Assembly: GCA_010093745.1 (NCBI GenBank)
Contig: MU005967.1
Coordinates: 1 to 64,000, forward strand
Reading direction: 5' to 3'
DNA: 64,000 nt
DNA from: Piedraia hortae CBS 480.64
Taxonomy: Eukaryota
Shown here piece by piece: positions 15,738 to 40,821 of the stretch (positions within the stretch are counted from its first letter, which is position 1; each line of letters opens with the position of its first letter). Made by a program: the position numbers and the translations under genes. The notes under the pieces are model-generated. The model saw only the letters and a list, made by a program, of their open reading frames with translations, was not told the DNA's origin and did no database searches.

Positions 15738-16031
15738 GTTTGCTGATTCTTCGCTGGGATTCCAATCACGACTGAAAGGAGCGTTAGTAGAATCATTGAA
15801 TGAATGTCCCTCTGTACTCGCCTCGGTCTTTGGTGCGACGCGGCAAAGTGATGATCGGTGGGAGTTTTGCGAGAAAGTGAGGTTCGGGTGTGCAGGAAAT
15901 CTTGGCACGCTATGCTGAATCGGGCGAACGTGTCAGTCCTCTGATTGGCTGTTGTCGCGACGAAGTCACATGCTGTCATCACAGCTGAAGCAATCTGGCG
16001 AATCTTGAGAAGAGCAGTTTTTCCAAACTGC

Positions 16032-19699: not shown

Positions 19700-19913
19700 G
19701 CTGATGGGAGGGTCCTACCTCTCTGATCGACTATCTTTGGTGATTGTCTGGTAGAGGGCATGATGTCATCGAGCGAAGATGGCGTTACGCTAACTAGATT
19801 GGGATGTTGACATATGCAAACAACGACGCGCGACGCGCTCCATCCAGCGACAAACTGAGCGACATTCATCTGAGCATTCGCAAGCACATTGGGCATAGTA
19901 CAGCAGTTCCGCC

Positions 19914-22900: not shown

Positions 22901-23831
22901 CCGAGACCTAGAATCCCAACTCCACCAATTCAAAGTAAACGGCACACCCGTTCGCGAGCGAGACAATCTCCAACACAAACTCGCAACCTCGCACTCCACC
23001 ATTGAAGCACTCAAAACCTCCATCAAAACCCTCGAAGCCTCCGTAGAGTCCACAACCCGAGAACGCGACTCCCTCCAACACAAACTCCAAACCTCGCACT
23101 CCGACCTTGAAGCCCTCAAATCCTCAATACAAACCCTCGAAACAGAAGTTATCTCAATCACCGCCGACCGCGACTCTCTCCAACAAAATCTCTCTACAGC
23201 CGAAGCGAACCACACCGCCCTCCGCTCCACAATCGAAAAACTCGAGATCACAGCCCTACAACCACCCAAACCCCAAGACTCGGTCAAACTCCGCACTCGA
23301 ATCGAAAATCTAAAATCCGACCTCCAACACGAAAAATCACTCGCAGAACAGCGCCTAGCAGCCCTCCAAGCCCGGCACGAAGCGGAACTCAAAGGCCTAG
23401 CGAAACAAATCCAGTTTCTCCGTGCGAAATGCACACGGGAGGAGAACTTTCGTGCTGATCTAGCGTTTTCGAAGAAGTTCTTTCTGCTACAGATTGAGCT
23501 TTATAATAAATGGTGCGTTTGCTGTCACTACTTATCCTCTCTCTCTCTTTCTCTCTCTTTCTCTCCCTCCCCCTTCCGCCCCCGGCCACCCACCCGATGC
23601 TAATCTGTTTATAGTAATCAAACGGACCTGCGATTACTAGAGGAAATGGGCATCACGCCGGATATGACTGTCCTCACCGAGCAGAGACCATCTCTGCGGT
23701 CCGTGGGGCTGATGGTTATTAGTTGTATAAGGATGAAACGACTCCAACAGAGTTGGGCGGCGAATGCGAGGGTTCAGGAGGCGTTGATTAGGAAGTTGGA
23801 TGCAATGAGGAGACAGCGTGTTAGAGCATAA
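19914..23831 (+). CDS. PCP1: Pericentrin-like spindle pole body protein (CM1 motif, coiled coil, PACT domain)
   Basis: TLREQE..KENFSLKLKIHYLEE (CM1); intron 23513-23614 joins FRADLAFSKKFF..YNKC-NQTDLRLLEEMG; LRSVGLMVISCIRMKRL (PACT). Confidence 0.88.
20961..21470 (+). repeat. Intragenic tandem duplication, 270-nt (90-aa) unit
   Basis: RELSQATEGANNLQQDID..DRDQST..KLREKEA repeated at 20961 and 21231. Confidence 0.9.
22953..23250 (+). repeat. Intragenic 105-nt (35-aa) repeat, about 3 copies
   Basis: RERDNLQHKL / RERDSLQHKL / ADRDSLQQNL units. Confidence 0.8.
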
Positions 23832-23847: not shown

Positions 23848-24054
23848 TTATTGTTTTATGAGGCTTGAAAATTTATGGTCGCGTTCCGTCATTACCCTCC
23901 TCAACTCCGCTTTAGCTGCTTCGGATTTCGAATCCGCTGCTTCAGGGTCAGGGGGTATAAATTTGAATGATGCGAGGTGGGTGGTCAGCTTGTCGACTTT
24001 CTCGCGGGGCGAAGATACTTTTTCATGGTTCCTGAATCGAACCCCAGGGCGCAT
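23848..24054 (-). CDS. 68-aa ORF duplicating the HAUS1 C-terminus (functional status unknown)
   Basis: LASFKFIPPDPEAA..AKAELRRVMTERDHKFSSLIK aligns with HAUS1 LAAFEALPPDPGAA..AREELRRVTRERDRSFEGLIK. Confidence 0.5.
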   Translation of the reverse strand: MRPGVRFRNHEKVSSPREKVDKLTTHLASFKFIPPDPEAADSKSEAAKAELRRVMTERDHKFSSLIKQ

Positions 24055-24860
24055 TACTTAATGAGTCCCTCAAAACTCCGATCGCGCTCCCTCGTAACCC
24101 TCCTCAACTCCTCCCTCGCTTGTTCAATTCTCTCCCCCGCCGCCCCCGGATCAGGAGGCAAAGCTTCGAACGCGGCAAGTCTCTTCTCCAACCCCTCCAA
24201 CCTCTTGCGAAGCGCCTTTACCCTTTCCATCCTCTCCCAAACCTCACCAACCTCCCCCTCGGACCCATCCCTCTTCAGCACCGCCAAGCGGGAGTCATAC
24301 TCCCCCACCTTCGCCCGCACGACCTTTGTACTTTTCCCCCACTCTGTAGCCTTCTCATGCAGCTCGGCGTAGGAAGGGAAAGCATCTAGCCCCGATATTA
24401 TAGCTTCTAGGTTGGACTGTTCGGAGCGGAGGGCAGACTGTGTCGCTTCCGCCCTAGAAACCCTCCCCTCCAATTCAAAAACCTCATTCGTGAGGCGCAC
24501 ACAAGCCGGTGCTAACCCCTGGGGCTGAACCCCAAGGAGCACACTCGCTGCTGCTAGTTCATTAAGACCCTCCCTAGCATGGGGAGTTAAAGTTCCAAGG
24601 AGGGATGTGCAGAACTCACTACCCTTTGAAGCGGAGCGTAGAGTTGACATTTGCACGTTTTCAGTGAGATGTCTCAGCTCATCAGCTTTTTCGTTTAGGT
24701 TCGCGAGGGTTAGGAGTGCTTGGAGGGTTTCCTCTGTGCGTTCGAATACTGGGGGGGTGGCAGGGTGGTACTTTTTCGAGAGCCAGGTTGTGACGGACGC
24801 CCAGTCTTGAGCTTGGAGGTGCGCTGCGAGGGCTTTGGAGGGGGAAAATGATGTTTCCAT
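24054..24860 (-). CDS. HAUS1: Augmin/HAUS complex subunit 1-like protein
   Basis: FSPSKA..DWASVTTWLSKKY..PVFERTEETLQALLTLANLNEKAD, C-terminal F..LPPD motif. Confidence 0.75.
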   Translation of the reverse strand: METSFSPSKALAAHLQAQDWASVTTWLSKKYHPATPPVFERTEETLQALLTLANLNEKADELRHLTENVQMSTLRSASKGSEFCTSLLGTLTPHAREGLNELAAASVLLGVQPQGLAPACVRLTNEVFELEGRVSRAEATQSALRSEQSNLEAIISGLDAFPSYAELHEKATEWGKSTKVVRAKVGEYDSRLAVLKRDGSEGEVGEVWERMERVKALRKRLEGLEKRLAAFEALPPDPGAAGERIEQAREELRRVTRERDRSFEGLIK

Positions 24861-25064
24861 TGGGTGAGTTTTTGGGGTGAGGGTTTTGTTGGTAGCTTGG
24901 CTAGATGGGAAGGTGATGTTTTACCTTGAGTTAGCTAAGCTATTGGGTGGCTCAAACGCACAAAGGTCGCGTAGTTTTGATTGGTGGGTTCGGGCCGGTC
25001 CGCTGCTTGACATCAATTAACCAAGCTATCTCTCTGGCAAATAAACAGGAGTGGATAGTTGGGA

Positions 25065-27164
25065 ATGGCGATTAAGGCAGATCTCCAAGCTGCAAAGAGT
25101 GCGCTTGATGATTCAAAATATGAAGAGGCTGCCGCTGCCGCGCAGAGAGTCTTGACCGCCGACCCACAGAATTTCAACGGGCAGTTACTGTACGGGCGTG
25201 CGTGCGAGAAGCAGCGGGACTTCCAAGGTGCCGAAAGAGCTTACCGCGCCGCGGCCAAGGCTAAACCCCATGACCGCAACCCGTGGCTGGGGCTCTGTAG
25301 TGTTTACGAAGCCCTGGGGACGGATAAAATTGATGAATATCATGAAGCTACGCTAAAGGTAGCGGATATCCTGGCTGAAGCGGATGATAAACATCGCTGT
25401 CAGGTCGCTGTGGATAAGTTTGTGGCATTTGCGGAGCAGTTTGGCTCCAGAGAGCAGTATAGACATGCGCTGGGGATGCTGCTGCCGGACAGTTCGATCT
25501 ATGATTTTTTGCAGGGGAGGATACCGCATGCGTCTTCGACGTATATGAGGTTGGTGAAAATGATGGAGGAGGAGGAGGTGCAGAGGATTCGGAGGGAGAT
25601 CGCTGAGCGGAGGACACGGATAGGTGCTACGCTTAGCCAGGTTACGGTTGATGTGAAGAACGAGGTGCTTGGGAATAGTCCGTTGGAGGGATTGTATCAG
25701 AAAGTGATTGATTGGTCGCTTGATGATGGGGTGAGGAGGGAGTACGAGGAGAAGTTACTGCAGAGGGCGTATGATGTGCTTGCCGTTCTGCCCGTGAAGG
25801 AGAAGGCTGGCAAGCGGGAGCAAGTGTTGATGTTGGCGAGAGGAATGGTCATTATTCATCATGGATTCCGCCTCGCTTGGGACCTGGTCATTGAGTCAAA
25901 GGATCCGTATGATTTGCAAGAGTTTGATGTAAATGTCCTGCAGGAATACACCTCTCTTTTTCCGGATACAGGTCTCGCGAAGGTGTTGTCAGCATGGCTG
26001 AGCAGCGAGCGTTCGCCATTCCCGACATCGGACGAAGATGAGAATCCAATGAGTCTCGAGGTCCGGCTCGTACTGCTTGTTGAGGGCCTCTCCGAAGCAG
26101 GGCAGTCACCGCTCGCGCATCGCATCGTTTCCACATACTACCTACATATAGAAGAGTACGAAAGCGCAGCAGATACAGCCCGAACGGGCGTCAGATTAGC
26201 CACCGCAGAATCACACAAACTAGGCACATCCCTACAAAACACAAAAGACGCTCTAAATACCGTCCTCGCAACCGCACTTGTCCACCACCTCTCTCCCAAA
26301 TATCACACCGAAGCCCGCCAACTCTTCGAAGATATCCTGAAGCGGGACAACCGATCCTCACCCGCCCTCATGGGCCTAGGCCTCATCCTTGAAGAAACAG
26401 AAGACTACACGGACGCAATCACCTACTTCACGCGAGCCCTGGACCAAGACCCTGGGAACGAACGCATCGGAATCGAATTAGCCTGGTGTCGCGCCCTCTG
26501 TGGCGACTACCTCTCCGCCCGCGAAGAACTCGAAACCTACCTCTCCATCCTAGAACCCACAGACCGCGACCTCCGCGCCCTCGCCCTCTACCGCATCGGA
26601 ATCTGCATCTGGGAACTTGATCCCTCCAAACCAGCCCGCAAATCCCGCGACGGCGCATACAGCTATTTCCTCAATTCCATCCAAACGAACCGCAACTTTG
26701 CCCCCGCATACACCAGCCTAGGCTATTACTACGCCGACTACGCCAAAGACAAAAAGCGCGCTCCTCTCTGCTTCCAGAAAGCCTTTGAGCTCTCTTCCGC
26801 GGAAACAGATGCCGCGGAGCGATTAGCTAGGATTTTTGCGGATAAGGGTGAGTGGGATCTTGTAGAGGCTGTGGCACAGAGGGTTGTGGATTCTGGACGT
26901 GCGAGGCCTCCCCCTGGCTCGAAAAAGAAGGGGCTTAGTTGGCCGTTCTCTGCGCTGGGCGTTGTGCAGATGAATAGGCAGGAGTTTAGGGCTGCGATTC
27001 CGATGTTTCATACGGCATTGAGGATGAATCCGGGGGACTTCCATGCGTGTGTTGGCCTTGGGGAGAGTTATCATAATTGTGGGAGGTATGGGGCTGCGTT
27101 GAAGGCGTTGGGTTTTGCGTTGGAGGGCGTTGGGGGTGGGGGTGGGGGTGGGGAAATTTTGTGA
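25065..27164 (+). CDS. SKI3: Superkiller protein 3, N-terminal half (TPR repeats), 699 aa
   Basis: TPRs; EIAERRTRIGA, APAYTSLGYYYADY..CFQKAFEL, RPPPGSKKKGLSWPFSALG, GLGESYHNCGRY; ends GGGGGGGEIL then TGA TGA. Confidence 0.88.
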   Translation: MAIKADLQAAKSALDDSKYEEAAAAAQRVLTADPQNFNGQLLYGRACEKQRDFQGAERAYRAAAKAKPHDRNPWLGLCSVYEALGTDKIDEYHEATLKVADILAEADDKHRCQVAVDKFVAFAEQFGSREQYRHALGMLLPDSSIYDFLQGRIPHASSTYMRLVKMMEEEEVQRIRREIAERRTRIGATLSQVTVDVKNEVLGNSPLEGLYQKVIDWSLDDGVRREYEEKLLQRAYDVLAVLPVKEKAGKREQVLMLARGMVIIHHGFRLAWDLVIESKDPYDLQEFDVNVLQEYTSLFPDTGLAKVLSAWLSSERSPFPTSDEDENPMSLEVRLVLLVEGLSEAGQSPLAHRIVSTYYLHIEEYESAADTARTGVRLATAESHKLGTSLQNTKDALNTVLATALVHHLSPKYHTEARQLFEDILKRDNRSSPALMGLGLILEETEDYTDAITYFTRALDQDPGNERIGIELAWCRALCGDYLSAREELETYLSILEPTDRDLRALALYRIGICIWELDPSKPARKSRDGAYSYFLNSIQTNRNFAPAYTSLGYYYADYAKDKKRAPLCFQKAFELSSAETDAAERLARIFADKGEWDLVEAVAQRVVDSGRARPPPGSKKKGLSWPFSALGVVQMNRQEFRAAIPMFHTALRMNPGDFHACVGLGESYHNCGRYGAALKALGFALEGVGGGGGGGEIL
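27131..27153 (+). repeat. (GGGGGT)n tract, G-quadruplex-capable; complementary to 35047-35068
   Basis: tgggggtgggggtgggggtgggg seen directly. Confidence 0.85.
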
Positions 27165-27896
27165 TGAAGGTGAGGTCTGTGGGGTTGGGCGTTTTTTTTC
27201 TTGGAGTGGAGGGCTTTGCTGATATGCGAATGTTCTTTGAGAAAGGGAACTTTCGATAGGGTTAGAGATGTTTGGTGGTGGTGCAGGGGCAAAAGGGGAG
27301 CAGTGGAGCGCGAGGTTTTTTGCTATCTAGCAAGGGGTAAACTTGAACTCAAGTGGTTCATGTCCCGGAATCGAAAGCATTTCTGCAAGGTGTCGGCGGA
27401 ATTTCCCCCCAAACAGTGACATTCAATCAGAAGCAAACATTCTGCTATACGCGTCTACTCAGCAGACAACGACATACCTTTCCCATCGATCGACCATCTG
27501 TGTTGTTGAGAAGTATCAGTGCCATACCTCGGCCTGATAACAAAGACTATACCAAGAAAAATTCTGTATAGCAAAATGCTCAAAGAGCATAATAAAGAGG
27601 ACAGTGGGGCGATGGAGTGATATTTGGAAACTGTCTGAAGAAAGAAGCTACTTGTATATAAGCTCGCTGCTGAACATCAGAAAACATAACTTTGTTAAAA
27701 TTCAATCTTCAGAACGATTACGCTACGCAACAACTAACTTCCAACAATCTGTACACCATCGCACGTCCTCACGCATAGCAATCCCAGCTACGACGTCATC
27801 TCTTCATACAGTTACATGTACTTATTCATCCCCACCCTCATCCAGCTCCATATCCTTGCCCTCCTCCCGTCCCTCATCTCCATTCTCATCTCCACC

Positions 27897-28973
27897 CTAC
27901 TCTCCACTCTCCTGCTCATCCGACACATCTGACCCACTCAAATCGCTCACAAACTCTTCCGAAACTTTCTCATCTTCACCACCATCCTCATTATCGAGCC
28001 TAATCGGGAAATACACCCACCACCTCGTCTTCCCCCTTATCTCCCCTTGTCCCAGTTCCTCCCGATTCACCCACTCCGCCCTCGGCAGCCCCGTCGACTT
28101 GAAAACAGGTGGCTCCCAAACCGCCGGCTGAAGCTTCTTCAGCGTACCCTTCTTCACCCGCTCGAGCGTAGCAGACGAGTACTTGGTATGTTTTGGCCCC
28201 ACGAGCTCACCCAGCGGAATGCGCTCTTCGCGCGAAAGGATTTGACGTAGGGGCGCGTATTTGCCCCATGTGGGCTCCATGTTAGGACACCGGGAGAGGA
28301 CCTGTGGAGCTGGAGGTTCTAGTGGGCGAGCGACTGGGTCTCCGAGAACCGTCAGTGGGTCCGCAAAAATAATCGGTGGCTCTTCAGGCAGGGCAGGTGG
28401 ATCCTCGGGCTCGGCTTGCGGCATCTCAAACATCGCCTCTAGGTCTTCGGGACGAGCGGGCATTTCAGGGGAGAGGGCCGTGTCCTCGGCGGTTGTAGTC
28501 GTTGTCGTCTCCGCTGGCTGGACATCCACATTACCCCGAAGCTGAACACTCCGGTTCACATCTCGATCATCATTCCCCAGTGAATGAACCTGATTCGTAT
28601 TTTCCGCCGAGCGAAATGCATCCTCCCAATCCCAATCCAACTCCGGAATTTCGTGCCCTTCTTGCAGATCACTCACGAGTTGTTCATTATGGAACTCGTA
28701 CCCTCGTCCGAGCTGGAAGGTGTGGTCGGTGTCCGGGATGATATTGTCGGGATGGTACCCCAATCGGGTGAGTTCCCTGAGGTCTTGTTCGAATTTCTTG
28801 GTGATGACGGGGGCCATGTCGTCGCTAAAGGTATGTTCGATTTGAAGAGGGTCCCTGGTGACGTTCTCTTGGTTGTTATCACAGAACATGAGGCGCTGGA
28901 TTATGTCGAGGACATAACGCGCAGTTTCCATTTGCGTGGGATCTTGGTTGGAGTGGTTGGTTGGTTGGGGCAT
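27897..28973 (-). CDS. Orphan protein, paralog A (acidic tail)
   Basis: Long ORF; start set at MPQPTN by alignment with paralog B; shared RIPLGELVGP domain. Confidence 0.7.
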   Translation of the reverse strand: MPQPTNHSNQDPTQMETARYVLDIIQRLMFCDNNQENVTRDPLQIEHTFSDDMAPVITKKFEQDLRELTRLGYHPDNIIPDTDHTFQLGRGYEFHNEQLVSDLQEGHEIPELDWDWEDAFRSAENTNQVHSLGNDDRDVNRSVQLRGNVDVQPAETTTTTTAEDTALSPEMPARPEDLEAMFEMPQAEPEDPPALPEEPPIIFADPLTVLGDPVARPLEPPAPQVLSRCPNMEPTWGKYAPLRQILSREERIPLGELVGPKHTKYSSATLERVKKGTLKKLQPAVWEPPVFKSTGLPRAEWVNREELGQGEIRGKTRWWVYFPIRLDNEDGGEDEKVSEEFVSDLSGSDVSDEQESGE

Positions 28974-29413
28974 TTTGTGTGGAAAATTGTGTGTGGAGGG
29001 TTTGTGTTTGTTGAGGTTGGGAGGGAGAATGAGGGAGGGGGGGTGAGGCATGGCAAAGTAAAGTTGGGATGGAGTTTTCTTGGGAGAGATTCTTGAGTTA
29101 TGGAAGTTTACTTGGGGGAAGTTGACTTTGGGTGAAGAAATTTCATTCATCTTGTTTACGGGATCTGTGTTGGATGCAGGGCCCTGGTGGCAACTGATAG
29201 TTGTGAATACAAGGCGAGTGTGTGCCCCTTTAGCCTGCGCTCACCGTAGCCGTATATGTGTATAAGCAGTATTTCTTTCGTCGTGGGTATGATATTACGG
29301 TATTTGAAATGGGACTGTCGATGGAGAGTTACAAGATGTCCATGGACCATATGATAACAGTTCAAGAACCGCATAGAATAAGGCTCTTACCGACACCACT
29401 CCACATCCCACAA

Positions 29414-30409
29414 TCACTCCTGGACCCCCTCCTCCAGCTCTTCCTCCTCCGTTTCATCAGTCTCACTCGTATCCACATCCTCCCCCTCCTTGTCAACATA
29501 ATCCTCATCCTCCCCTTCCAATTCCACTTCACTCGCAAAATGAAACCTCCACCACTCATCATTCTCCGGCTTTTGGTCCTTCGGTCCCATTCCATACGTC
29601 TCCGGTCTCGGAACAGTCAGAACCGCCGATCCCCAAACCGCCGGACCCAGCTTCATCATCGACTCTCTTTGCACACGCAAAAGTGTCTCAGACGAATAGT
29701 TGGAATAAGACGGTCCCACCAGCTCGCCCAGGGGGATTCTCTTCTGCCGTGGGAGAATGGAGCGTAGATGTGCGTATGCGCCCCAATAGGGCTCTACATT
29801 GGACAGCAGAGTTGCATCGGTAGAAGCATCGGTGGAAAGGGTGGAGGTGGTTGGGGTGTTCGGAGGGATGTTTTCCGGCGGAGCCTGGGGAGTACTGGGA
29901 GGTGCGGCAGCGGTGGTATCCGCAGTACTCTCGGGCTGCACATCCGGCCTTACATCCTGTGCGGTTTCGGCAGCTGCGGTGGGAACACCCTCGGCACTCC
30001 CACGCTGCACGTCCGGCCCGATGCCCAGTGTGGTTCCTGTACCCTGGAAAGTTATCTGAAAGTCTTGATGAAACTCGGGATCAATGTAAGCCTGGAAAAG
30101 ACAACGGACGAAATCCGCATTTGCGATTTCCCGACCGCCGTACAGCTGGAAGGTTGCATCTTGGCCCGGACGGAAAGAGTTTGGATAGAAGCCCATCACT
30201 AGGTGGCGAGGAAGAGTTGCCTCAAGATCCAGAGAGACAATCTCCTCCAGGTCCGCTGTGGATTCCCCTAGCGCCAAGCTTACGGGGTTGGGAGGAACGT
30301 TCTCCTGATCGTCATCATCGAGTGCGTCCCGCTGGAAGAGTTCAAGCACATAGCGAGAGGGTTCCATTTGGGTCGGGTGTTGGGGGTTGGGGTTGTTTGG
30401 TTGTGGCAT
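29414..30409 (-). CDS. Orphan protein, paralog B, 331 aa
   Basis: MPQPNN..PTQME..RYVL..QENV and EP.WG.YA.LR.IL....RIPLGELVGP shared with paralog A. Confidence 0.72.
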   Translation of the reverse strand: MPQPNNPNPQHPTQMEPSRYVLELFQRDALDDDDQENVPPNPVSLALGESTADLEEIVSLDLEATLPRHLVMGFYPNSFRPGQDATFQLYGGREIANADFVRCLFQAYIDPEFHQDFQITFQGTGTTLGIGPDVQRGSAEGVPTAAAETAQDVRPDVQPESTADTTAAAPPSTPQAPPENIPPNTPTTSTLSTDASTDATLLSNVEPYWGAYAHLRSILPRQKRIPLGELVGPSYSNYSSETLLRVQRESMMKLGPAVWGSAVLTVPRPETYGMGPKDQKPENDEWWRFHFASEVELEGEDEDYVDKEGEDVDTSETDETEEEELEEGVQE

Positions 30410-30876
30410 GGTTTCTGTCTCTCTGTCTGATGTGGAGTTTGCGTGGGAATGGGTTTATTGTTGAGAGGGAAGGAGAATTGAGAAAATGGAGAGCATGTCA
30501 GGGTGCAGTTGGCATCATTTTCTCGTGAGAGAGATTTCAGGTCGGGGTTCTTCACCCGGGGGGTCACACTGGGTGAAGTAATTTTATCTCACGATTTCAT
30601 GGTCTGGGTTTATGTTGACTACAGGGGGGAACAACTAAAGGCGTTTGCGGAACTGTGTTGGCGAGAATTTGTGGAGCGATTTGTTGGGGGGATTTTCGTC
30701 TGGGGAGATAGGGGTTGGCCTTGGCGGGATGTGGGGCTGGATGCACGCTATAAGGTTATGACTTCTCTTGCGCTCACCTTTCGCTTACCTCGTCAGCAAG
30801 TATACCAAACATCTAATGAACTGAAACTCAATACCTGTTTAATATATCATCACGTCAAACTACCAACGCCTACAGA

Positions 30877-31641
30877 CTAGTCCACATCAGGCCCATTCCC
30901 AGCTTCTTCATTCTCCTTTGCCCGTTGCAAAATCCTATCCAGACGCGCCTGATTGAGTTCTCGCTGCGACCACGGTGGAGCTCTCTCCTGCTCGCCTACG
31001 GTGCTTACTGCTGGCGGGGCAGGCTGCGGGGCGGCCTGTTCTTGCGGAGCAGGGCGAGGTTCTTGAGTCGGACCAGCCTCTTGCGGCTTGGGACGGTGAG
31101 CTAGAGGCTTAGACTCTGCCGGAGGCGCTGGACGATCCTCTTGCTCTATTGGACGAGTAGCTTGAGGGGCCGAACGGCCCTTCTCTTGAGCCTTAGGACG
31201 AGACTCTTCGGCTGTCCATTGACTTTCCTGTGGAGGAGGGTGGTTGGGAACCACCGGTCTCGCTGGTCTCTCGAGCCTAGCCTGACGTTCTTTGATCCTG
31301 CTCATACCCTGAGAAGTAGACTGAGCTTCTGTCGTTCGAGCACCCTGAAGAATCCTATCTAGACGAGCTTGGGCCCTTTCTCCATGCGTTGGCGAAGACG
31401 GGTTCTCATCCCTGACTCTATCCATTGCCTCTAAAATTCTTTGCCCTGGGCGGGAAGTCTCCGGAGGGAGGCGTTTGAATGCAATAGGCCTGATCGGCCT
31501 CCTCTCCATCCTCTCCTGAGCAACCTCAATCCGGCTTGGGGGAGCATCTTGATCATTGTTCATCGTGGGCCTATGAGATGATGACCCTTCTCGTTGCTTA
31601 TGCGGAGAAGACTTCTCTTTATGTTTGCAAGACGCCGCCAC
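30877..31641 (-). CDS. Orphan low-complexity protein with repeated QARLDRILQ motif
   Basis: 254-codon ORF with internal motif repeats (QARLDRILQ x2, RQARLER). Confidence 0.55.
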   Translation of the reverse strand: MAASCKHKEKSSPHKQREGSSSHRPTMNNDQDAPPSRIEVAQERMERRPIRPIAFKRLPPETSRPGQRILEAMDRVRDENPSSPTHGERAQARLDRILQGARTTEAQSTSQGMSRIKERQARLERPARPVVPNHPPPQESQWTAEESRPKAQEKGRSAPQATRPIEQEDRPAPPAESKPLAHRPKPQEAGPTQEPRPAPQEQAAPQPAPPAVSTVGEQERAPPWSQRELNQARLDRILQRAKENEEAGNGPDVD

Positions 31642-32753
31642 CGTGGGTGTTGGTTTGAAGATGTTGACCTTAGCTCTACCTCAGGTGGCAGTTCCCGCGG
31701 CACAATCCCCCGTTCCCTCCTCAACCTCGCAATATCGCTGGCAGATACGTCTTGACTGGCATCTCGTACAGATGACTGCTACCTCGCTGCCCAGCGCGTG
31801 TGAGTCGCCGTCACAACCCTGTCAATACGGTCATTCATCTCACGAGACAGAGTGGGGTCGCCAATGTGTTGGCTGTTGAGGCTTCCGTGCATCTCGCCTG
31901 CGGCACAGCGAAGGCGGGATTCAGCCAGGCATTGCGCATATGTAGGTGTAAGGCCACCATTTACTGTTAGTTCGCGGCCACTCTGCTGCGAGGACCAGCT
32001 TTTGATTTCTGCCGATTTGCCCATTCTTCCCTACTGTTTGGTTTCTGATTTGAGGTTTGTGGGCCCATTTAGGCTGGTTTATACGGGTATATGAGTGCGG
32101 GAACATGAACACAGTGCATATTGGAAGTTTCGAATGAATCCTACTTTTTGTGTCCGACAAGGGATACAGCGGGACAGTCTTAGGTGAATACAGACGTCGA
32201 CCAGCAGGTCGGTGCCACCTTTCCATGCAACTGTCACTGTCAAGAGGCTCAAAATGTATCGGGCATCAATAAAGCAATTCAGTGAGGGATATCTTAATGC
32301 TCACTCTTAGTTGACCTCCTCACATCACAAATCGTTGCTAATATCTTGTTCTGGATGTAAGAAAATCATGAGAGCAAATCAACATATAAAGACGGAAATA
32401 TGCAGACGGGAGAAGCAAACATTCGCAAGTCTTCTTTTGTTCTATCCATCAAGACGAAGCACGTGAATTTTCATGTACAAACCGCTGGAGGGATCCTCGG
32501 CATGTACCCGGGAATGCCTGTCCGAAGAACAGACTAGCCACAATGACCACAGAACTGGGTGAAAGAAGGCGCAGAAAGATGTGAATAGATCTTTGTCCTC
32601 ATTCAAAGCAGCCTGCCAGATTAGGATATACCTGCCATATAGATCACAATAGAAGCGAAACTCCTCTTTAACGCCAAGTGAAGACTAATCTTCTCCAGAC
32701 ATTTTATACACATGTACAGAAAAAACCACCACCTATCAACAGTCTCATCGAAC

Positions 32754-33482
32754 TTAGTCAACATCCAAACTCAAATCTTCCGAATTCTCCGCTTCTGGCC
32801 GTGCTCTTATGAGAGCCGGGTCCCTCGGCCTGTGTCCTCCCGACGCATACCAAGCATCCTCGCCTCCTGAAGTTCGCGGCGGAACTGATGCTGACCGTCC
32901 ACTTCTTCGAGATGACGACAGTGGTGGGAATCCTGTCGGTGGTCGCATAGACGGAGGTGTTTGTGATCCACCAAATCCCGACTGTGAGCCCAAGCCCCTT
33001 GAAGCGTCAACTCCACGAGGCATGCCCGGGCGAATGTTCTGTATAAGTTGGTTCGTCATGGACCCGCCAATTCCTCCAGCACCAGCACTTCTATAGATAC
33101 TTTCTCCAAAATTTCCACCAGAACCTCTTCCAAGACCGTAACCTGGAATCCAGAATAGAGAGTGACCCAATTGTCGCAGCGTCCTAACAGTCCAGTCCAG
33201 CTCCTCAGCAAATACCTTGCGAACGGATGGGTCAAATGCAGGAAACCGAGCGGCCTCTTGGACTTTCGGCAAGTAAAAAGTCAGCACATCCTCGTGGAGG
33301 CCATCCATCCAAGTGCGACTCCTGAGGGTTTCTGAGCCAAGGTGGAAAGGTGAGTGGGGATGAAGCTTGTTATACTGTCTGATAGCGTGTCGGCGGGCTC
33401 GAACTACTTGTTTGGGAATTTCATGCGGACAGTCGCTCCGGGGAACCCATGTGTTGTATATCTCGTGTTGACTTCGTGACAT
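32754..33482 (-). CDS. Orphan protein, 242 aa (globular-looking N-half, Gly/Ser/Pro/Arg tail)
   Basis: ATG-initiated ORF with protein-like composition; no family recognised. Confidence 0.55.
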   Translation of the reverse strand: MSRSQHEIYNTWVPRSDCPHEIPKQVVRARRHAIRQYNKLHPHSPFHLGSETLRSRTWMDGLHEDVLTFYLPKVQEAARFPAFDPSVRKVFAEELDWTVRTLRQLGHSLFWIPGYGLGRGSGGNFGESIYRSAGAGGIGGSMTNQLIQNIRPGMPRGVDASRGLGSQSGFGGSQTPPSMRPPTGFPPLSSSRRSGRSASVPPRTSGGEDAWYASGGHRPRDPALIRARPEAENSEDLSLDVD

Positions 33483-35046
33483 CTTGCTTACACGCGGTGT
33501 TCTATAATTTTCAGGATCAGGATTTGGAGTCTAATAAAAGGTGGGGGGGAGGGGGATGGTGAAGCAGCAGCAGTGTGAGGAAGGGCAAGGTGGGTGAATG
33601 GCACAAGCGTGTTCACTGTTCCGAGCTTGTGATGTGTGTAAATTGATTTGAGCATTCGTGCATGATCTTCGTGACATGACTACATCCCACCAGCTCTCTC
33701 GATTAGGTGCATATGTCGATCAGCATGCTTGAGTGTAGCCGTGTAAGGCTCAATGCATGGCAGAAGACCTTGTACTCTCGTGGAAGAAGTATTAGAAAAT
33801 CATCAATAAACAAGGACCGTTTGTGCTTGTGTTCACCGCCATGAAACACTCTGTCAAAAACTGCTGATGTATGGTGTTCTTTGAAGCAAGAGGATGCTTG
33901 GCACGCCTCGACATGATATTCCGTGCTTCATAATCCATCTGGTGATCCGTGGTACCATCACCACCTGGGATATAGAGACTTACACTGGGGGATTGGCTAT
34001 AGATTCGAGAAACCGTACGTCGGAATTGCCAATTCTTACATATGGGCAATCAGCTACTTGGGAATTGAACAAGCCATGGAAATTTCATAGCTGTTGCATT
34101 GTACCACCCAGCAAGCCCGGTTAGAACGTGACCTTGCAGTTCAGTCGCAAAAGTCATATTTAGTGGTCAAATGCCAGATGTACCAGCGAAAGACATCCAG
34201 ATGTCATCACCGCAAGTCATCAATCTCACGAAGACCGCTTTACTTCTAGTTTGAGAAAGGCGACCTTCCCACTTGGGACATGATTGTGCTCCGCAGCGGG
34301 GTAAGCTAGCGGAATTACGTGCGCCAAGCCCAATGCATGCGACGGCACATTTCGCTTAAAAGGGCGGAAGCAACTTTAGGAGGCCAAGGGCTTCCATCTT
34401 TGTCGATAAGGCCTCGAGGAAGCGGTTCCCAACATATGAGGGGCAAGATTTGGAGGCGGATGGGCCGCCGCGGCAAGGGACCGCAGAATCGGGAGCTTAC
34501 CAAGATCTTCCCCCGATCGTGACGGCCATGGTCGACCGCGATGGTGCAGCTCTGGCCGCCTCTGCCAAGTCCAAGCCTGTTGCTGAAGATCTGAAACATC
34601 TGCTGTCACATTCTGCCCGTTCTTCTCTCACGTTTGATTCTCTGGCGCCATCTTCCAACCGCGATCAGTGTGACCTTACCTCATCTGACATCGAGTTTGA
34701 GGCAAATACCGAGACTTTAGAGAACTTGAAAGAAAGGGCCAGTCTAAGTCACGAACTTTTCGACGAGGTTGTACGGCCGATGATGGACTGTTTCGTCATG
34801 GAGAATGGGTACTGCCATAGGGATCCACATAGCACACAACCTGATCCATTCTCAACATGTTATGCAGCTATGTAACTCACACACCTGTATGCGTAGTCTG
34901 CGCAGAGCTAGCGATTCATTGTAGTATCACTTCCCAATCAATCCCAATACCGACCGACATCTGCCTTAAACAGTTCTCCAAGAACACAGAACAACCGAGA
35001 ACTTTGCCAAGATGACGGGACATTACAGGCGCAGTGGGGCAGCAAA

Positions 35047-35073
35047 CCCACCCCCACCCCCACCCCCACCCCA
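35047..35073 (+). repeat. (ACCCCC)n tract just upstream of the SKI3 C-half
   Basis: cccacccccacccccacccccacccca seen directly. Confidence 0.85.
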
Positions 35074-35102
35074 CCACATCAATCGCAAACAACCAACCAA
35101 CA

Positions 35103-37064
35103 ATGTCACACCCTAAACCCGAAACCTGGCCAGCGCAATACCTCCTCTCAAACGTCCACCGTGAACTTGGCTCCTATACCGAGTCCATAACCCTCCTCCG
35201 CAAAATCCTCGCAACCAACCCCCGAGAGGTCATAATCCTCCTAAGCCTTCAACAGACCTACAATGAACAAGCCTTATCCAACCTGCGATCGGGTCTCTAC
35301 GGCGCAGCCGCCCTCAGCGCCCATGAAGCAATCAAAACCGCGGGAATCCTCATCTCAGCGCACGCCGACGCAAAAAACCTCTGGAAGAACCTAGGCGACT
35401 CGTGTCTCATCTACACTTTAACAGACAAACTCCCCTTCCCCGCGGAGGAAGTAGCTTCCATCCTCGGGGCCGAAGGCTCTCACTCAGACTCCACCTCAAA
35501 CTCTCCCTCCGCCTCAGCCGAAGGCTCCTCAAGCGACCCCACCCCCTTCCTCGCCGCGCAGCGTGCCTACACGCGCGTCCTCTCCCTGAACAGCAATGAC
35601 ATCCACGCTCAAAGCGTAGCATACTACAACCTAGGCTACATCTCCTACCTAACCTCCACCACCCAAACCACCAAGTCCTCGCTCAAAACCTCAATCCGCA
35701 ACTTCAAAAGCGCGATCGAGCTCGAAGCCGGCAACTCCGAATTCTGGAACGGGCTCGGCGTGGCAGCCATGAAAATAAACCCCCGCGTCGCACAACACGC
35801 GTTCGTGCGGTCCTTGCACCTCAACGAGCTGAACGCACGGGTTTGGACGAATTTGGGTGTGTTGTATCTCCTGCAAAAAGACGAGGAGTTAGCACATCGC
35901 GCATTCGGGAGGGCACAGTCTACTGATCCCACGTATGCGAGTGCGTGGGTGGGTGAGGGGGTGCTAAAGGGAGATAAGGGATTGGCGTCATTCACGCACG
36001 CGTTTGAAATTGCGGACGCGGGGGATAGGGCGGTGAAGAAGGTTTATCCCGCGGCGTTTTTCGATCAGAGTGGAGGCGCGTCGCGTGACCTGGCGGGTCT
36101 GATTCAGCCGCTGTTTGCGTTAGAGCAGCTCCGCGCACAGAGCGGGGGACAGAAGTACGAGCACCTTTCTGCGTTGTTTAGGGAGAGGGTAGGGGATTAT
36201 GATTCCGCAATTGAGAGTTTGATGAAGCTTAGTGAGGCTGCGGAGATGGAGTATGAGGTTGAAGAGAGTAAGGAGGCGTTGGAGCATTATGCGCAGGCGA
36301 AGGCGGATCTGGCGAGGTGTGCGCTTGCGTGTGGGAGGTTCGAGGAGGCGAGAGACAATGCGACTGCGGCATTGGACTTGGAGGTTGGAGGCGAGAGATT
36401 GCGCCTTTCGGCGCATTTGACGGCTGGGCTTGCGGCGGACGGGTTGGGAATGATGGGGGAGGCGGTTGCGATGTTTAAGAAGGCGCTTACGGAGAGTGAG
36501 GGCGCGGCGGATGTGTTTTGTTTGCTGGGGAAGGTGCTTTGGGCGAAGGGGGGTACGGAGGAGAGGGATGTGGCGAGGGAACAGGTCGTGGGGTGTATAG
36601 AGCGGAATCCGGATCATGTGGGTTGTGTTGTTCTGTTGGGTGCCATGGCCGCGTTGGATGATGATGTGGAAGGGTTGGAGGCGGTAAAGGAGGATCTCCT
36701 GCGGTTGAGGATGAGGGAGGGATTAGAGGCTGCTGATGCAGCGGATATTGATCGATTGTTACTCGCTCTGGCGGGTTTGGAGTCGAATGGGAATGAACTG
36801 GCGCAGGCGCAGGAAGCGGTTGCCCTTCATCCCGAGGAGCCAAATGCTTGGGCTGAACTGGCGGCTCTTTCTGACGACGCGACTGTAGCCAAGACGGCCC
36901 TGAGGGCTGCACAAAAGGCTGTTCCGCCCTTTGGCAGTCTAGATGCTGCCGCTTTGGCGAAGGCTGCGGCAGAGGTGGGAGATGGAAGATCAGTGCAAGA
37001 GGCTGTTGTGCTTGCACCGTGGGAGGCAGTGGGATGGAAGAGATTAATAGAATTGGCTACATGA
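35103..37064 (+). CDS. SKI3: Superkiller protein 3, C-terminal half (TPR repeats), 653 aa
   Basis: ETWPAQYLLSNVHRELG, FKSAIELEAGNSEFWNGLG, VAQHAFVRSLHLNE, RAQSTDPTYASAWVGEG, ends AVVLAPWEAVGW; ATG in acaATG context; frame open back to 35016. Confidence 0.88.
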   Translation: MSHPKPETWPAQYLLSNVHRELGSYTESITLLRKILATNPREVIILLSLQQTYNEQALSNLRSGLYGAAALSAHEAIKTAGILISAHADAKNLWKNLGDSCLIYTLTDKLPFPAEEVASILGAEGSHSDSTSNSPSASAEGSSSDPTPFLAAQRAYTRVLSLNSNDIHAQSVAYYNLGYISYLTSTTQTTKSSLKTSIRNFKSAIELEAGNSEFWNGLGVAAMKINPRVAQHAFVRSLHLNELNARVWTNLGVLYLLQKDEELAHRAFGRAQSTDPTYASAWVGEGVLKGDKGLASFTHAFEIADAGDRAVKKVYPAAFFDQSGGASRDLAGLIQPLFALEQLRAQSGGQKYEHLSALFRERVGDYDSAIESLMKLSEAAEMEYEVEESKEALEHYAQAKADLARCALACGRFEEARDNATAALDLEVGGERLRLSAHLTAGLAADGLGMMGEAVAMFKKALTESEGAADVFCLLGKVLWAKGGTEERDVAREQVVGCIERNPDHVGCVVLLGAMAALDDDVEGLEAVKEDLLRLRMREGLEAADAADIDRLLLALAGLESNGNELAQAQEAVALHPEEPNAWAELAALSDDATVAKTALRAAQKAVPPFGSLDAAALAKAAAEVGDGRSVQEAVVLAPWEAVGWKRLIELAT

Positions 37065-37118
37065 GGTGAGCGTTTATACATTAACTTACACACTAATCGT
37101 ACAACGGTAGACACCGGT

Positions 37119-38037
37119 TTACTCGACGAACGACTGCAGCCGCTTCAGCCAGTCCACGTATTCCTTTTGCTCATGCTCGATGACATGGTCTGGAATGAAC
37201 ATGGAGAGGTTGGTGTTGATGCCGCGAGCTTCGAGGTATTTGTGGAACAGCGACTGGACCTCCTCGTCCAAATGAGGGAACAGCGGTCCAGTATACACTC
37301 CGTCCGTGTCTTTACGAAGCAGCTCGACGGCCGAGGTTGAATGCATTTCCTTACTGTCTGGCAGATGCACGACATGGTTGATGTGGAAAAAGCTGTCGGT
37401 GGTATCCATGTACAGCTTCAGAGCGCCCTGTGGAGAGTCAGCGATGATCCTTCAACGGGAGCGGCATACTGACCTTGTTCCTCTTACGAATCAGAACGCG
37501 GACTTCGGCCGGGATAGGCACATCCCAGTCCTCCTCCTCCAACGTCTCAGCCTTTGAATCCGATTCCTCGTAGCGCTGATCCATGCGGTCTTCAGGCACA
37601 ACCTTGAACTTGTCTGACGTTCCACTGTTGATTTCGTCGCTGTCTAGCTCATCGTCACTCATCTCGTCTTCCATCTCTTCATCCGGCCCAAGGCTATTGT
37701 CCGCCTCAGAGACGTTGAACATGACGGTGATGTCCTCATCTTCGTATTTGCGCTCCATGATCACCTCCCCCGTGCCTGTCGTGTCGGAGATCTTCCATCC
37801 TGGGTTCTTTTCCAGGAAAGACTTGACATCGAGGTTATTCGTCTTAGACATCTCGTTTGACTCCAACTGAGCCTCCTGCGAAAGTTTGGCCGCCAATTGT
37901 TGAGAGGCGGAGTCGAAGCGGGAGTGCGAGAGCGAGAATGCTTGAACACGCTGCGTAGGGAATCGGCGGAACGGCGTTCTGCAGGCAAATCGGGTAGTAC
38001 CCCGAGGGATAGCACGGTATACAGTTCGTGTGAGCAT
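37119..38037 (-). CDS. MAM33: Mitochondrial acidic matrix glycoprotein (MAM33/C1QBP)
   Basis: Arg-rich presequence, acidic loop, intron 37428-37473, YTGPLF..LDEEVQ..YLEARGIN..EQKEYVDWL. Confidence 0.9.
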
Positions 38038-38187
38038 GATGTTAATGAAAGCCGGTGATGTTAAGCTGAAAGTTCAAAGCGGAACAACGTCTGCGGAAAA
38101 AAAAAAAACGGTGCGGTAGCGGACGGGTCGGGTCGGACCGTAGCTTGAACCACTGCTAGCGCGCCTTCAACCTCAGATGTTCAGACC

Positions 38188-39199: not shown

Positions 39200-39909
39200 T
39201 TACTGCCCATCTTGCTTCCGATCGAGCACCTTGTCTACGATGCCCCAATCCAGAGCTTCTGTGGCGCCCATAAAGTAGTCTCTCTCCATAATCTTTTCGA
39301 TCTCGTCCAGACTCTTTTTGCCGCCCTCTTTCGGCGTCAGATGTCTTTGGTAAATCTTGTTTAACTGCTCTCTGACCCGTAAAATTTCCTTTGCGTGAAT
39401 GGCAATGTCCGATGCCTGACCGTGATACCCGCCGGAGACTTGATGCACCATGATTCTGCTATGCGGTAAACACTGTCTTTGGCCCTTTGCACCGCCGCAC
39501 AGCAGCAAGCTACCCATGCTGGCAGCCTCGCCCATGCAGATTGTGGCGACGGGCGAGCGAATGTACTGCATGGTGTCGTAGATGGCCAGGCCAGCAGTCA
39601 CGCTGCCCCCCGGGCTGTTGATGTACATGTTAATGGGCTTGGAAGGGTTCTCAGCTTCGAGAAACAGCAGCTGGGCCACAACGGACGCCGAAGTTCTCTC
39701 GTCCACCTCGCCATTGAGGCAGACGATGCGCTCTTTTAGCAGTCGCGAGAAGATGTCGAATGTCTGCCATCCGCCTCCCTAATTGGCTAAGCAGCGGCCG
39801 CTGGTGAGTTTGATATACGTACAGTTGACTCGGTCACAAACGGATAGGGCAGATTGGAATATAGAGGGGTTCCTCTTTGCGCGAGCCGCCGGACACTTTG
39901 TTTGAACAT
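39200..39909 (-). CDS. CLPP: Mitochondrial ATP-dependent Clp protease proteolytic subunit
   Basis: Intron 39779-39822; [45 protein letters not shown]. Confidence 0.95.
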
Positions 39910-40681: not shown

Positions 40682-40821
40682 TGTGGAGGCCGAGGTGCGA
40701 GGTGCCGGGCTGAAACGGGCTTAGCTCCCGACGGCCCTTGGACGTGGATTGGTGGGGCTATCGGCTAGCGTCGGGTAGCGCCAGACGACCAGCAAAGAGG
40801 GAATGAGGGAGAGTCGCGGAC

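Follow-up and report, generated by a model that had tools for sequence, protein, structure and literature searches.

In the 64-kb window (the whole stretch of DNA analyzed), the SKI3 gene is cut at one codon by ∼7.97 kb of unrelated DNA (27131-35102), and complementary G- and C-tracts lie at the two sides of the cut. With about even confidence, we favor a gene fission into two transcription units, in which the tracts are slippage-expanded extremes of the compositional skew found at gene ends. The features of the locus are given in Table 1.

Table 1. Features of the interrupted SKI3 locus, in window coordinates
Feature	Coordinates	Strand	Description
SKI3 N-half gene	25065..27164	+	699 aa plus stop; TPR repeats; ends ...FALEGV-GGGGGGG-EIL-stop; from ORF and translation
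G-tract, T(G5T)3G4	27131-27153	+	TGGGGGTGGGGGTGGGGGTGGGG; last N-half codons (Gly7); four G-runs with 1-nt loops
N-half stop (27162-27164) and presumed 3' UTR	27154..27500	+	G+T-rich to ∼27320
Solo LTR (TGTTG...CAACA)	27501..27746	+	from sequence; 5-bp target duplication ATCTG at 27496-27500 and 27747-27751
Orphan ORF P0003	27897..29240	-	start-to-stop part ∼27897-29150; RNA contig 27937-28977
Orphan ORF P0004, P0003 paralogue	29414..30454	-	RNA contig 29407-29938
ORF P0005	30877..31680	-	low-complexity, Pro/Gln/Arg-rich; putative gene
ORF P0006	32754..33530	-	transcribed; own C-rich 5' leader on coding strand, 33538-33559 (+ strand coordinates)
Divergent intergenic region, P0006/C-half	33531..35046		presumed C-half promoter and 5' UTR; one RNA contig covers all
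C-tract, C3A(C5A)3C4	35047-35072	+	CCCACCCCCACCCCCACCCCCACCCC; 30 nt upstream of SKI3 C-half ATG
SKI3 C-half gene	35103..37064	+	653 aa plus stop; begins MSHPKPETWPAQYLLSNVHRELG

Both halves are recognizable as SKI3. The N-half, in which Pfam finds TPR families, is 59-63% identical to full-length Dothideomycetes SKI3 proteins of ∼1390 aa, and the C-half is 49-51% identical to 6 orthologues (identities to the 6 are ∼61% and ∼50% for the two halves). There is no internal stop in their 699 and 653 codons, and the halves stay intact despite a third-codon-position skew (G+T over A+C) that reaches +0.72 and -0.60. Mapped onto yeast Ski3 (4BUJ_B), the N-half ends at about residue 767, while residue 9 of the C-half falls at about residue 774. 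Where an orthologue reads ...ALEPHDGVSMKVAGETW..., the window reads ...ALEGV, then the interruption, then MSHPKPETW..., and the initiator ATG of the C-half aligns with a Met found in most orthologues. The ancestral split site is a short loop between two TPR repeats, and orthologue alignment places the insertion with a precision of roughly one codon, all SKI3 sequence being retained. Elsewhere in the genome there may be another, intact copy of SKI3.

SKI3 is uninterrupted in all 57 metagenome loci that cover the split site (62 orthologous loci in total, of which 5 stop short of it), the two parts lying 3-48 nt apart. In these relatives the loop is ordinary coding sequence of ∼10-15 codons, and a tract is present in 0 of 41 distinct loop sequences, all of them from distant orthologues with at most 63% protein identity. 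A database search for a close relative found none, the best identity being ∼63%. The upstream neighbor (24057-24920) has homologues upstream of intact SKI3 in 9 loci, and homologues of three downstream ORFs lie on the downstream side of intact SKI3 (2 loci for 37441-38073, 5 for 40010-40720 and 2 for 40807-43116). Conserved neighbors beside both halves thus indicate a 7.97-kb insertion at the ancestral SKI3 locus. The insert ORFs have no match in the 62 SKI3 loci, whose 1.5-kb flanks were covered. The skew changes by 0.51 at the split in the window, as against a mean of -0.06 and a maximum of 0.07 in 23 near-full intact orthologues; the step is derived.

The solo LTR within the insert is a later, separate insertion; many loose-ended contigs stack exactly at it in both sequencing runs, and no second copy lies within the 64-kb window. 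P0003 and P0004 are 35% identical over 352 aa (E 7e-43). Neither has a Pfam family, and P0003 has no homologue at E≤0.001. Among the 6 insert ORFs, neither a Pfam family nor a transposase was found.

RNA evidence comes from run X2, whose contigs lack three segments of 102, 46 and 44 nt bounded by GT..AG or CT..AC; DNA run X1 retains all three, which identifies X2 as RNA. These three verified introns (44-102 nt) have GTNNGT donors in 3/3 cases. Over the N-half, an X2 contig runs from 25055 to 27120 and continues 22 letters into the masked G-tract; cover past the tract is deduced solely from bin depth. On the other side, an RNA contig (32730-37426) passes unbroken and unspliced through the C-tract and across 35042/43. 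No listed contig joins 271xx to 350xx, that is, N-half to C-half, in data made of assembled contigs that drop rare isoforms and give neither strand nor ends.

As the preliminary description had observed, positions 35047-35068 are the exact 22-nt reverse complement of 27131-27152 (TGGGGG repeats), and the interruption point lies at most 30 nt from each tract. A second register pairs 27133-27153 with 35052-35072 over 21 nt; beyond the tracts, comparison of the two insert ends revealed no further similarity. It was also right that one tract ends the N-half and the other precedes the C-half ATG. The first base of the G-tract is the third base of the codon GTT (Val), the final N-half residue that can be aligned to orthologues; the tract is translated as G7, after which come E, I, L and the stop (TGA at 27162). 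The C-tract, which an upstream ORF from ATG 35012 reads as Pro8, ends 30 nt before the ATG at 35103. The caution that both are of low complexity and fit the local skew was well founded, since each is embedded in a larger block of like skew (excess of G+T over A+C of +0.44 at 27154-27320 and -0.80 at 35073-35102).

Composition alone does not produce such a match. In first-order Markov resamples of both flanking skew blocks, the longest inverted match averaged 10.2 and never exceeded 14 (0/300 reached 15). With at most one mismatch, GGGGGTGGGGGT matches 7 times, at 4 loci, where 0.30 matches would be expected; 0 of 100 shuffles reached this count. Of the 7, 5 fall within the two SKI3 tracts, and further (G5T)2 units are found at 18749 and, allowing 1 mismatch, at 30382. 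The two are the sole hexamer tracts of their kind in the 64 kb, the remaining G-rich and C-rich gene-end tracts of the window having no hexamer periodicity. Microsatellites of at least 15 nt occupy only 6 loci in the window, and 2 of them are one hexamer in opposite orientations, both at the edges of one insertion. By a rough estimate, independent growth of both tracts would coincide in this way about one time in a thousand. Chance does not account for the shared motif, which leaves some room both for an origin of the tracts at the junctions and for a role in RNA pairing.

The placement of the tracts follows a known rule. In fungi, C bias peaks over the promoter and 5' UTR, G bias marks the 3' end and continues into the UTR, and fourfold-degenerate sites show the bias too (McLean and Tirosh, 2011; PMC3315797). 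Coding strands in the window show the pattern strongly, being C-rich at the 5' side and G-rich at the 3' side, and the SKI3 tracts fit this exactly. Switches from A+C-rich to G+T-rich sequence fall inside ORFs in 10 of 13 cases, and the well-localized reverse switches sit between ORFs, with one exception. The 22-mer upstream of the ATG contains at least 13 C in 8/28 ORFs (4/28 for G), and the one at the 3' end contains 13 or more G in 8/28 (3/28 for C). The SKI3 tracts score 19 and 19 by this measure, followed by 18 (ORF 13276-14871) and 17 (P0006). Exceptions to the rule are the G-rich first 900 nt of the N-half, its internal switch at ∼26000 and the C-rich end of ORF 19899-23600. The window departs from what is described in the available text of PMC3315797 in the very large amplitude in some genes (third-position skew ∼0.7, blocks of 0.6-0.9 kb) and in that T and A follow G and C; that work also reports averages, whereas the tracts here are perfect hexamer repeats. 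The preliminary description had named as evidence against a pairing role that such tracts are common at gene ends genome-wide and that no joined transcript exists. On the scale of the window this largely holds, since G-rich 3' and C-rich 5' ends are found repeatedly and no transcript linking the halves was observed.

We consider it quite unlikely that the G-tract of the N-half RNA pairs with the C-tract of the C-half leader, whether for splicing or for coordinated translation or assembly. The coincidence of motif and place does demand a cause; both tracts are transcribed, the 22-nt RNA duplex would be very stable (-71.7 kcal/mol), and some donors and acceptors could be paired in frame (27129 GTTGGG with AG 35041-42; 27136/42/48 GTGGGG with AGs ending at 35028 or 35034). 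There is also a precedent in Giardia, where the Hsp90 halves are trans-spliced with the aid of 26-nt complements (PMC8494341). However, all these acceptors lie upstream of the C-tract, and the first later AG (35132-33) is within the conserved PETWPAQ coding sequence. As no AG separates the C-tract from conserved coding sequence, the tract cannot occupy a 3' intron half, and the Giardia geometry, with complements inside the intron halves, fails. The only in-frame donors, GTTGGG and GTGGGG, lack the GTNNGT of the verified introns, than which a 7.9-kb intron would be >75 times longer, and neither a group I/II intron nor any other Rfam family was found in 24000-38000. Stops follow directly past the G-tract (27162, 27165 and 27171, the first after 9 nt), the C-half has its own conserved Met, RNA is continuous over 35042/43 and no N-to-C joint is listed. 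An intramolecular G-quadruplex would further compete for the G-tract (-45.0 kcal/mol when allowed, -3.4 when not). The cis- or trans-splicing put forward in the preliminary description is therefore not supported, and the tracts probably have no pairing function. Another of its suggestions, a G-quadruplex site that promoted the insertion, fares no better. A pre-existing quadruplex or palindromic tract in the SKI3 loop could have caused the break and been split by the insertion: 4-5 G-runs with 1-nt loops make a strong quadruplex motif, and the tracts placed side by side give a 44-nt palindrome with the break between them, palindromes being a known kind of fragile sequence. Yet none of the 41 orthologous loops, from relatives at ≤63% protein identity, has a G- or C-tract, and 30 nt of other sequence separate the C-tract from the Met, so we give this reading an equally small chance.

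Birth of the tracts at the junctions, during the insertion event itself, is a better candidate, albeit still an unlikely one, and to that extent breakpoint scars are possible. The tracts would be either terminal inverted repeats of a mobile or mobilized 8-kb segment, or the product of extending both 3' break ends by one G-rich repeat (telomerase-like or by slippage) before a fragment was captured. This would suit the precision of the insertion, the absence of the inserted DNA from all 62 SKI3 loci, the start of the G-tract at the break itself and the perfect 22-nt inverted identity beyond what composition gives. On both sides, moreover, the 5'-to-3' direction of the G-rich strand points into the insert, exactly as expected from extending both 3' ends. 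Against it, inspection of the sequence revealed no target-site duplication even when transitions were allowed, the 6 insert ORFs lack a transposase or Pfam family, and the inverted similarity is confined to the microsatellite. The solo LTR is the only place where many different contigs stack, which excludes a repeat family with the same subterminal sequence at ≥90% likeness. The C-tract lies 30 nt from the conserved Met, away from the break, and the scar of an old event would need to have remained perfect. The Dothideomycetes telomere repeat is TTAGGG, although this may not be the repeat of this organism; the tract repeat differs from it, and TTAGGGTTAGGG is matched once in the window with 1 mismatch, no more than chance would give. 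An assembly artefact, in which the interruption or its left junction was falsely joined at low-complexity sequence, seems very improbable. No contig listed for either run bridges 27132-27144 or the LTR flanks, so that the window assembly is the sole source for the left junction. In contrast, two contigs span the right junction: a DNA contig (31336-40000, 0 differences), which is not independent if X1 is the source of the window, as it may be, and the RNA contig 32730-37426 of a second study. The interruption of SKI3 is therefore real and measures at least 3.7 kb. Conserved neighbors on both sides place the halves at one locus in one orientation, and no contig directly joins them.

Under the gene fission that we favor, ∼7.97 kb of unrelated DNA with lineage-specific minus-strand ORFs would have entered the ancestral SKI3, the LTR arriving later. 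The N-half would be read through the G-tract as a Gly7 tail up to a stop and a G+T-rich 3' region, and the C-half, preceded by a C+A-rich leader with the C-tract in it, would use an ancestral internal Met as its start. Replication slippage of the G5T/C5A unit may have sharpened the tracts, either imported with the insert or grown in place, into local extremes of the gene-end composition rule. They would be complementary because the 5' and 3' biases are mirror images. For the split to be tolerated, an imported insert would have had to bring a terminator at its left end and a promoter at its right end.

Related cases are known. Cand1 of aspergilli is split into candA-N and candA-C, which was attributed to a double-strand break and rearrangement (PMC6581859). 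Like SKI3, it is an all-helical repeat scaffold encoded by a single gene in most eukaryotes, now two genes nearby on one chromosome with other ORFs between them, and its parts are expressed separately. Unlike those of SKI3, the CandA halves have opposite transcriptional orientations and their complex was shown experimentally, whereas SKI3 kept its orientation and ancestral neighbors, its split being a simple insertion, and binding of its halves is weakly supported by prediction; the available portion of PMC6581859 makes no mention of complementary tracts. Giardia lamblia Hsp90 (PMC8494341) also has two ORFs for one protein on one chromosome, with complements of 26 nt against 22 nt here. Its pre-mRNAs have a canonical GU, branch point, polypyrimidine tract and AG, and a joined mRNA exists, whereas in SKI3 the acceptors are wrongly placed, the N-half carries a stop and the C-half a start of its own, and the contigs hold no joined RNA. 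The split Doa10 of Kluyveromyces lactis, although a membrane protein, is likewise a natural fission of a nuclear gene, for which it is proposed that the two products together restore the larger protein (PMC3464245).

Prediction weakly suggests that the SKI3 halves may contact one another. N-half residues 440-699 with C-half residues 1-300 scored 0.40 (best of 3 controls 0.00), with ≥94% contact agreement between runs and partner pLDDT ≥78. In the benchmark, the mark was reached by 51/78 solved complexes and 2/108 mismatched pairs; at scores ≤0.60, only 5/78 solved complexes reached it, plus all 4 mismatches that passed. Whole Ski3 structures are already solved, so this pass may be recall of them. 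Under the favored reading, the two halves of the gene would be expressed as separate mRNAs, and their polypeptides would reassemble into one Ski3 scaffold.

SKI3, which encodes a TPR scaffold, lies in the window as two open reading frames, an N-half and a C-half, both intact, the one with its own stop and the other with its own start at an ATG that aligns with a conserved Met found in most orthologues. Together they cover the whole protein, whose full-length relatives have about 1390 aa (1338-1796 aa among the matches listed, at least 120 proteins). The closest relatives in the protein collections searched are Dothideomycetes, at only ~62-63% identity. In the alignment the orthologues read through ...FNYALEPHDGVSMKVAGETWFAKY...; in the window ...GFALEGV runs into the tract on the left, and the right side has MSHPKPETWPAQY. 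This places the break within about one codon, with no SKI3 sequence lost. On solved structures the site is a short loop between TPR repeats, flanked in yeast Ski3 (4BUJ) by residues ~767 and ~774 and in human TTC37 by residues ~647 and ~653. Identity to six orthologues is ~61% for the N-half and ~50% for the C-half, as against 72.5% and 65.2% among the six themselves, so the C-half is somewhat faster-evolving. Since both frames are still open and recognisably conserved despite heavy synonymous skew, their sequences argue for continued selection on both halves.

A scan of metagenome contigs yielded 62 SKI3 loci. All 57 that hold both sides of the break are uninterrupted, with 3-48 nt between the N-like and the C-like part, and the remaining five stop short of the break site. 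Neither a G5T nor a C5A tract occurs in 41 distinct orthologous loop DNAs, and the 27-mer adjoining the G-tract has no match in the metagenome contigs. Protein searches, for the C-half against 1.84 billion representatives, returned no relative with only an N-half or only a C-half. The ten matches of N-half size are all partial models or distant, and none is a split form. The best match to the C-half, P0138 (679 aa), was considered as a split gene and judged to be a truncated model, because its start is the internal Met of YMLANVHRELG. Neither half, nor the insert proteins P0003 and P0004, has an exact match in the protein collection.

Contigs of two public sequencing runs match the window. X1 is DNA and may be the window's source; X2 comes from another study and is RNA, since its contigs skip introns that the DNA contigs keep. 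Most of the verified 102-nt intron is CT-rich sequence of low complexity (TCTCTC..., CCCTCCCCC). Positions 25055-27120 are covered by one X2 contig, with 22 letters more in the masked tract, and another X2 contig, unbroken over 32730-37426, passes through both the C-tract and the start codon of the C-half. In the DNA, one contig covers 31336-40000 without differences from the window. The joined transcript raised by the preliminary description has no counterpart at the level that contigs reveal: RNA contigs cover both halves, none joins them and no joint between 271xx and 350xx appears in X2, in contigs that show neither ends nor strand and drop rare forms. Bin depth over 26801-27400 is above what the N-half contig alone would give, which suggests RNA beyond the G-tract. 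Among the contigs listed for X1 and X2 none lies over 27132-27144, inside the G-tract, and none crosses the flanks of the solo LTR, which we do not count as evidence. A DNA joint of 27747 to 35742, found in one contig with a short side of 22 letters, was discarded, the contig ending in the LTR repeat.

Features at and around the interrupted SKI3 locus
Feature	Position	Strand	Description
Intron	23512-23613		GT..AG, 102 nt; skipped in X2 contigs
SKI3 N-half	25065-27164	+	ORF, 699 aa; stop at 27162
Insert	27131-35102		four minus-strand ORFs
G-tract	27131-27153		end of the N-half frame
Solo LTR	27501-27746		TGTTG...CAACA, 246 bp; intact 5-bp target duplication ATCTG
P0003	27897-29240	-	orphan, transcribed; in tandem with P0004
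P0004	29414-30454	-	orphan, transcribed; in tandem with P0003
C-tract	35047-35072		upstream of the C-half ATG
SKI3 C-half	35103-37064	+	ORF, 653 aa; ATG at 35103
Intron	37427-37472		CT..AC ends; skipped in X2 contigs
Intron	39778-39821		CT..AC ends; skipped in X2 contigs

Gene neighbourhoods point to a lineage-specific insertion at the ancestral SKI3 locus. At nine loci the upstream flank of an intact SKI3 carries homologues of the window's upstream neighbour, and three of the window's downstream ORFs have homologues in the downstream flank, at 2, 5 and 2 loci. No ORF from the insert is matched at any of the 62 metagenome SKI3 loci, within flanks of 1.5 kb. None of the four minus-strand ORFs has a Pfam family. 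P0003, for which no homologue was detected, and P0004 are paralogues (35% identity, E 7e-43) that have in common the motif RIPLGELVGP..YSS.TL.RV and acidic tails, and a third of these ORFs, P0006, drew scores of at most 0.84 in a protein atlas, which are leads only. No Rfam family (E<=0.1) and no tRNA was found in 24000-38000. The solo LTR is a later, ordinary event. It is the only place where many loose-ended contigs pile up, and since many contigs of both X1 and X2 carry copies of it, an LTR retrotransposon family is present in the genome.

The preliminary description had noted two tracts bracketing the interruption, and this observation is borne out: 27131-27152 is the exact reverse complement of 35047-35068, perfect over 22 nt. 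The + strand reads GAG GGC GTT GGG GGT GGG GGT GGG GGT GGG GAA ATT TTG TGA at 27123-27164 and ...GCAGCAAA CCCACCCCCACCCCCACCCCCACCCC ACCACATCAATCGCAAACAACCAACCAACA ATG at 35039-35105, and outside the tracts the two ends of the interval have nothing in common. Local composition does not account for the match, because in first-order resamples of the skew blocks on both flanks the longest inverted match averaged 10.2 nt and was 14 at most (none of 300 reached 15 nt), the dodecamer GGGGGTGGGGGT is in excess (seven matches with at most one mismatch at four loci in the window, against 0.30 expected, five of the seven in the two tracts), and microsatellite loci of at least 15 nt number only six in the window. 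Stretches of at least 16 nt made only of G and T number 12 in the window, and those only of C and A number 7. The tracts are alike in motif, length and place, a coincidence that, if they arose independently, we roughly estimate at one in a thousand. The window's longest homopolymer pair is elsewhere, at 13111-13143 between two minus-strand ORFs, where C10 is directly followed by A17.

The same description had cautioned that the tracts are of low complexity and fit the local skew, and this caveat proved the better lead. Gene-end skew recurs across the window, and its blocks run on across the borders of the insert. Blocks of 0.6-0.9 kb switch composition, with a third-position excess of G+T over A+C that reaches about 0.7 either way; some genes show skew of up to ~0.7 and others hardly any (for example 13276-19714, 25059-27161, 35016-37061 and 56363-58531). 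The coding strand of nearly every gene, in either orientation, is C/A-rich at its 5' end and G/T-rich at its 3' end. Switches from A+C-rich to G+T-rich lie inside ORFs in 10 of 13 cases, and the opposite switches, where well localised, lie between ORFs, with one exception inside the N-half at ~26000. By block, the third-position skew of the C-half is -0.60, -0.58, -0.40, +0.50, +0.74, +0.68 and +0.29, and that of the last block of the N-half is +0.72. McLean and Tirosh (PMC3315797) describe, for 64 fungal species, a coding strand biased to C in the 5' UTR and 5' end and to G at the 3' end, at degenerate sites too, with the bias strongest in the promoter and 5' UTR and reaching into the 3' UTR. 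The pattern of the window is this gene-end GC skew; T and A move with G and C, and the rule of 5' C and 3' G is kept. In third-position blocks it also far exceeds what 23 SKI3 orthologues from other fungi show. At the loop the skew steps by 0.51 in the window and by -0.06 on average (maximum 0.07) in the 23 intact orthologues, whose species are generally without a strong block pattern. G-rich 22-mers stand at the 3' ends of 8 of 28 ORFs (C-rich: 3 of 28) and C-rich ones upstream of the ATG of 8 of 28 (G-rich: 4 of 28); the SKI3 tracts score 19 of 22, and the next best 18 and 17. Two switches from G+T-rich to A+C-rich, a kind that elsewhere separates genes, fall within long ORFs: the one in the N-half just mentioned (25825-26175) and one at ~22600 in the ORF 19899-23600. 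Over its first 900 nt the N-half, contrary to the rule, has a G-rich coding strand, and there may be an internal or antisense transcription unit.

What the skew leaves unexplained is the perfection of the complementarity, a residual puzzle for which selection for RNA pairing is the boldest option and the least supported. Under this reading the two mRNAs would pair in trans, through the last codons of the N-half and the leader of the C-half, their 22-nt complementarity kept or built after the 8-kb insertion, either for joining or for coupled translation that makes both parts of the scaffold together, and we regard this as very unlikely. A tract-tract RNA duplex would be strong, with a predicted fold energy of -71.7 kcal/mol, and an intramolecular G-quadruplex (-45.0 with it, -3.4 without) competes for the G-tract. 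Low-level spliceosomal joining could use the donor at 27129 and the acceptor at 35042, adding a His-Pro-rich loop. The preliminary proposal that pairing serves cis- or trans-splicing is nevertheless not supported. The N-half frame meets TGA at 27162, 27165 and 27171. The first AG 3' of the C-tract, 35132-33, lies within the conserved PETWPAQ coding sequence, so the tract cannot lie in a 3' intron half as in Giardia; the usable AGs end at 35028, 35034 and 35042, all upstream of it. In-frame donors are GTTGGG at 27129, which pairs with the AG at 35041-42, and GTGGGG at 27136, 27142 and 27148, which pair with the AGs ending at 35028 or 35034; every such pair would leave the C-tract exonic and add ~20 residues of His-Pro-rich loop. 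The three verified introns have donors GTGCGT, GTCAGT and GTACGT, that is GTNNGT, which the N-half candidates lack, and the intron needed to join the halves would measure 7.9 kb against 44-102 nt. Giardia Hsp90 has complements inside both intron halves, after the 5' splice site and before the branch point and the 3' splice site, and a joined mature mRNA, whereas in SKI3 this geometry fails, X2 contigs hold no joined form and RNA is continuous across 35042/43.

A common origin of the tracts at the insertion would explain the coincidence. Had both 3' ends of one break been extended by the same G-rich repeat, as when a broken chromosome heals by de novo telomere addition, exactly the observed orientation would result, with the G-rich strand running 5' to 3' towards the break on both sides; the C-tract, however, stands 30 nt off the break, and the repeat differs from TTAGGG, the telomere repeat of Dothideomycetes. 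The tracts could also be terminal repeats of a mobilised segment, as an inverted repeat of 22 nt that is perfect but does not reach beyond the microsatellite. Its right copy lies 30 nt inside the edge of the insert, the flanks (...GGAGGGCGT and CCCCACCACATC / ACCACATC) have no common direct repeat as a target-site duplication, no transposase was found (0 Pfam families in 6 insert ORFs tested), and no repeat family marks the ends of the insert, only the solo LTR drawing many contigs. Other routes to the present arrangement were considered and set aside. A Helitron would have TC...CTRR ends and a site between A and T, neither of which is present, and the whole insert, with a TG start and a CA end, has neither target duplication nor gag or pol of an LTR element. 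Two overlapping inversions would place the ancestral downstream neighbours between the halves, when they are still downstream; an inversion with staggered breaks would put the G-tract, not the C-tract, beside the C-half; and duplication with complementary degeneration would not bring the two break points to within one codon of each other.

The most fitting label for the finding is natural fission of SKI3 accompanied by gene-end tracts. In the best reading the halves behave as two genes; the insert would supply a stop and a G/T-rich 3' region to the N-half and a divergent promoter region and C/A-rich leader to the C-half, and both frames stay open and conserved. An insertion lacking either the terminator side or the promoter side would probably have been lost. 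Within 35012-35116 lies a 34-codon upstream ORF (MTGHYRRSGAANPPPPPPPPHHINRKQPTNNVTP, then stop) in which the C-tract encodes eight prolines and whose end falls 11 nt beyond the C-half ATG; should the leader begin upstream of 35012, this ORF could throttle translation of the C-half. A predicted contact of the last part of the N-half with the first part of the C-half scored 0.40, against 0.00 for the best of three controls, on a scale whose mark 51 of 78 solved complexes and 2 of 108 mismatched pairs reach; at scores of 0.60 or below, only 5 of those 78 do so, and so do all 4 of the mismatches that passed. Between runs at least 94% of contacts are the same, with partner pLDDT of at least 78. This faintly hints that the halves might form a complex doing the single protein's job, and the predicted contact may be recall of solved whole Ski3 structures. 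Our literature search on SKI3 and split genes found no earlier report. The closest precedent is Cand1 of aspergilli, split into two genes five ORFs apart, with a double-strand break and rearrangement proposed (PMC6581859), and a second is the reportedly split Doa10 of K. lactis (PMC3464245).

If real, the pairing would give the nucleus of a fungus a parallel to the split-gene system of Giardia and, if functional, would be the first such system in fungal nuclear genes. As this case illustrates, mirror-image gene-end bias, if strong, can yield long perfect complementarity between neighbouring transcripts, which an observer could wrongly take for a designed RNA-pairing element. The conserved SKI complex, which delivers mRNA to the exosome, has Ski3 as its scaffold, and all other fungi sampled make Ski3 as a single polypeptide of ~1400 residues. 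A lineage that retains it as two genes, both intact and transcribed, with the split inside the TPR superhelix, offers a natural experiment that shows whether the scaffold tolerates a break, and how a gene can outlast an insertion that brings a terminator to one half and a promoter to the other.
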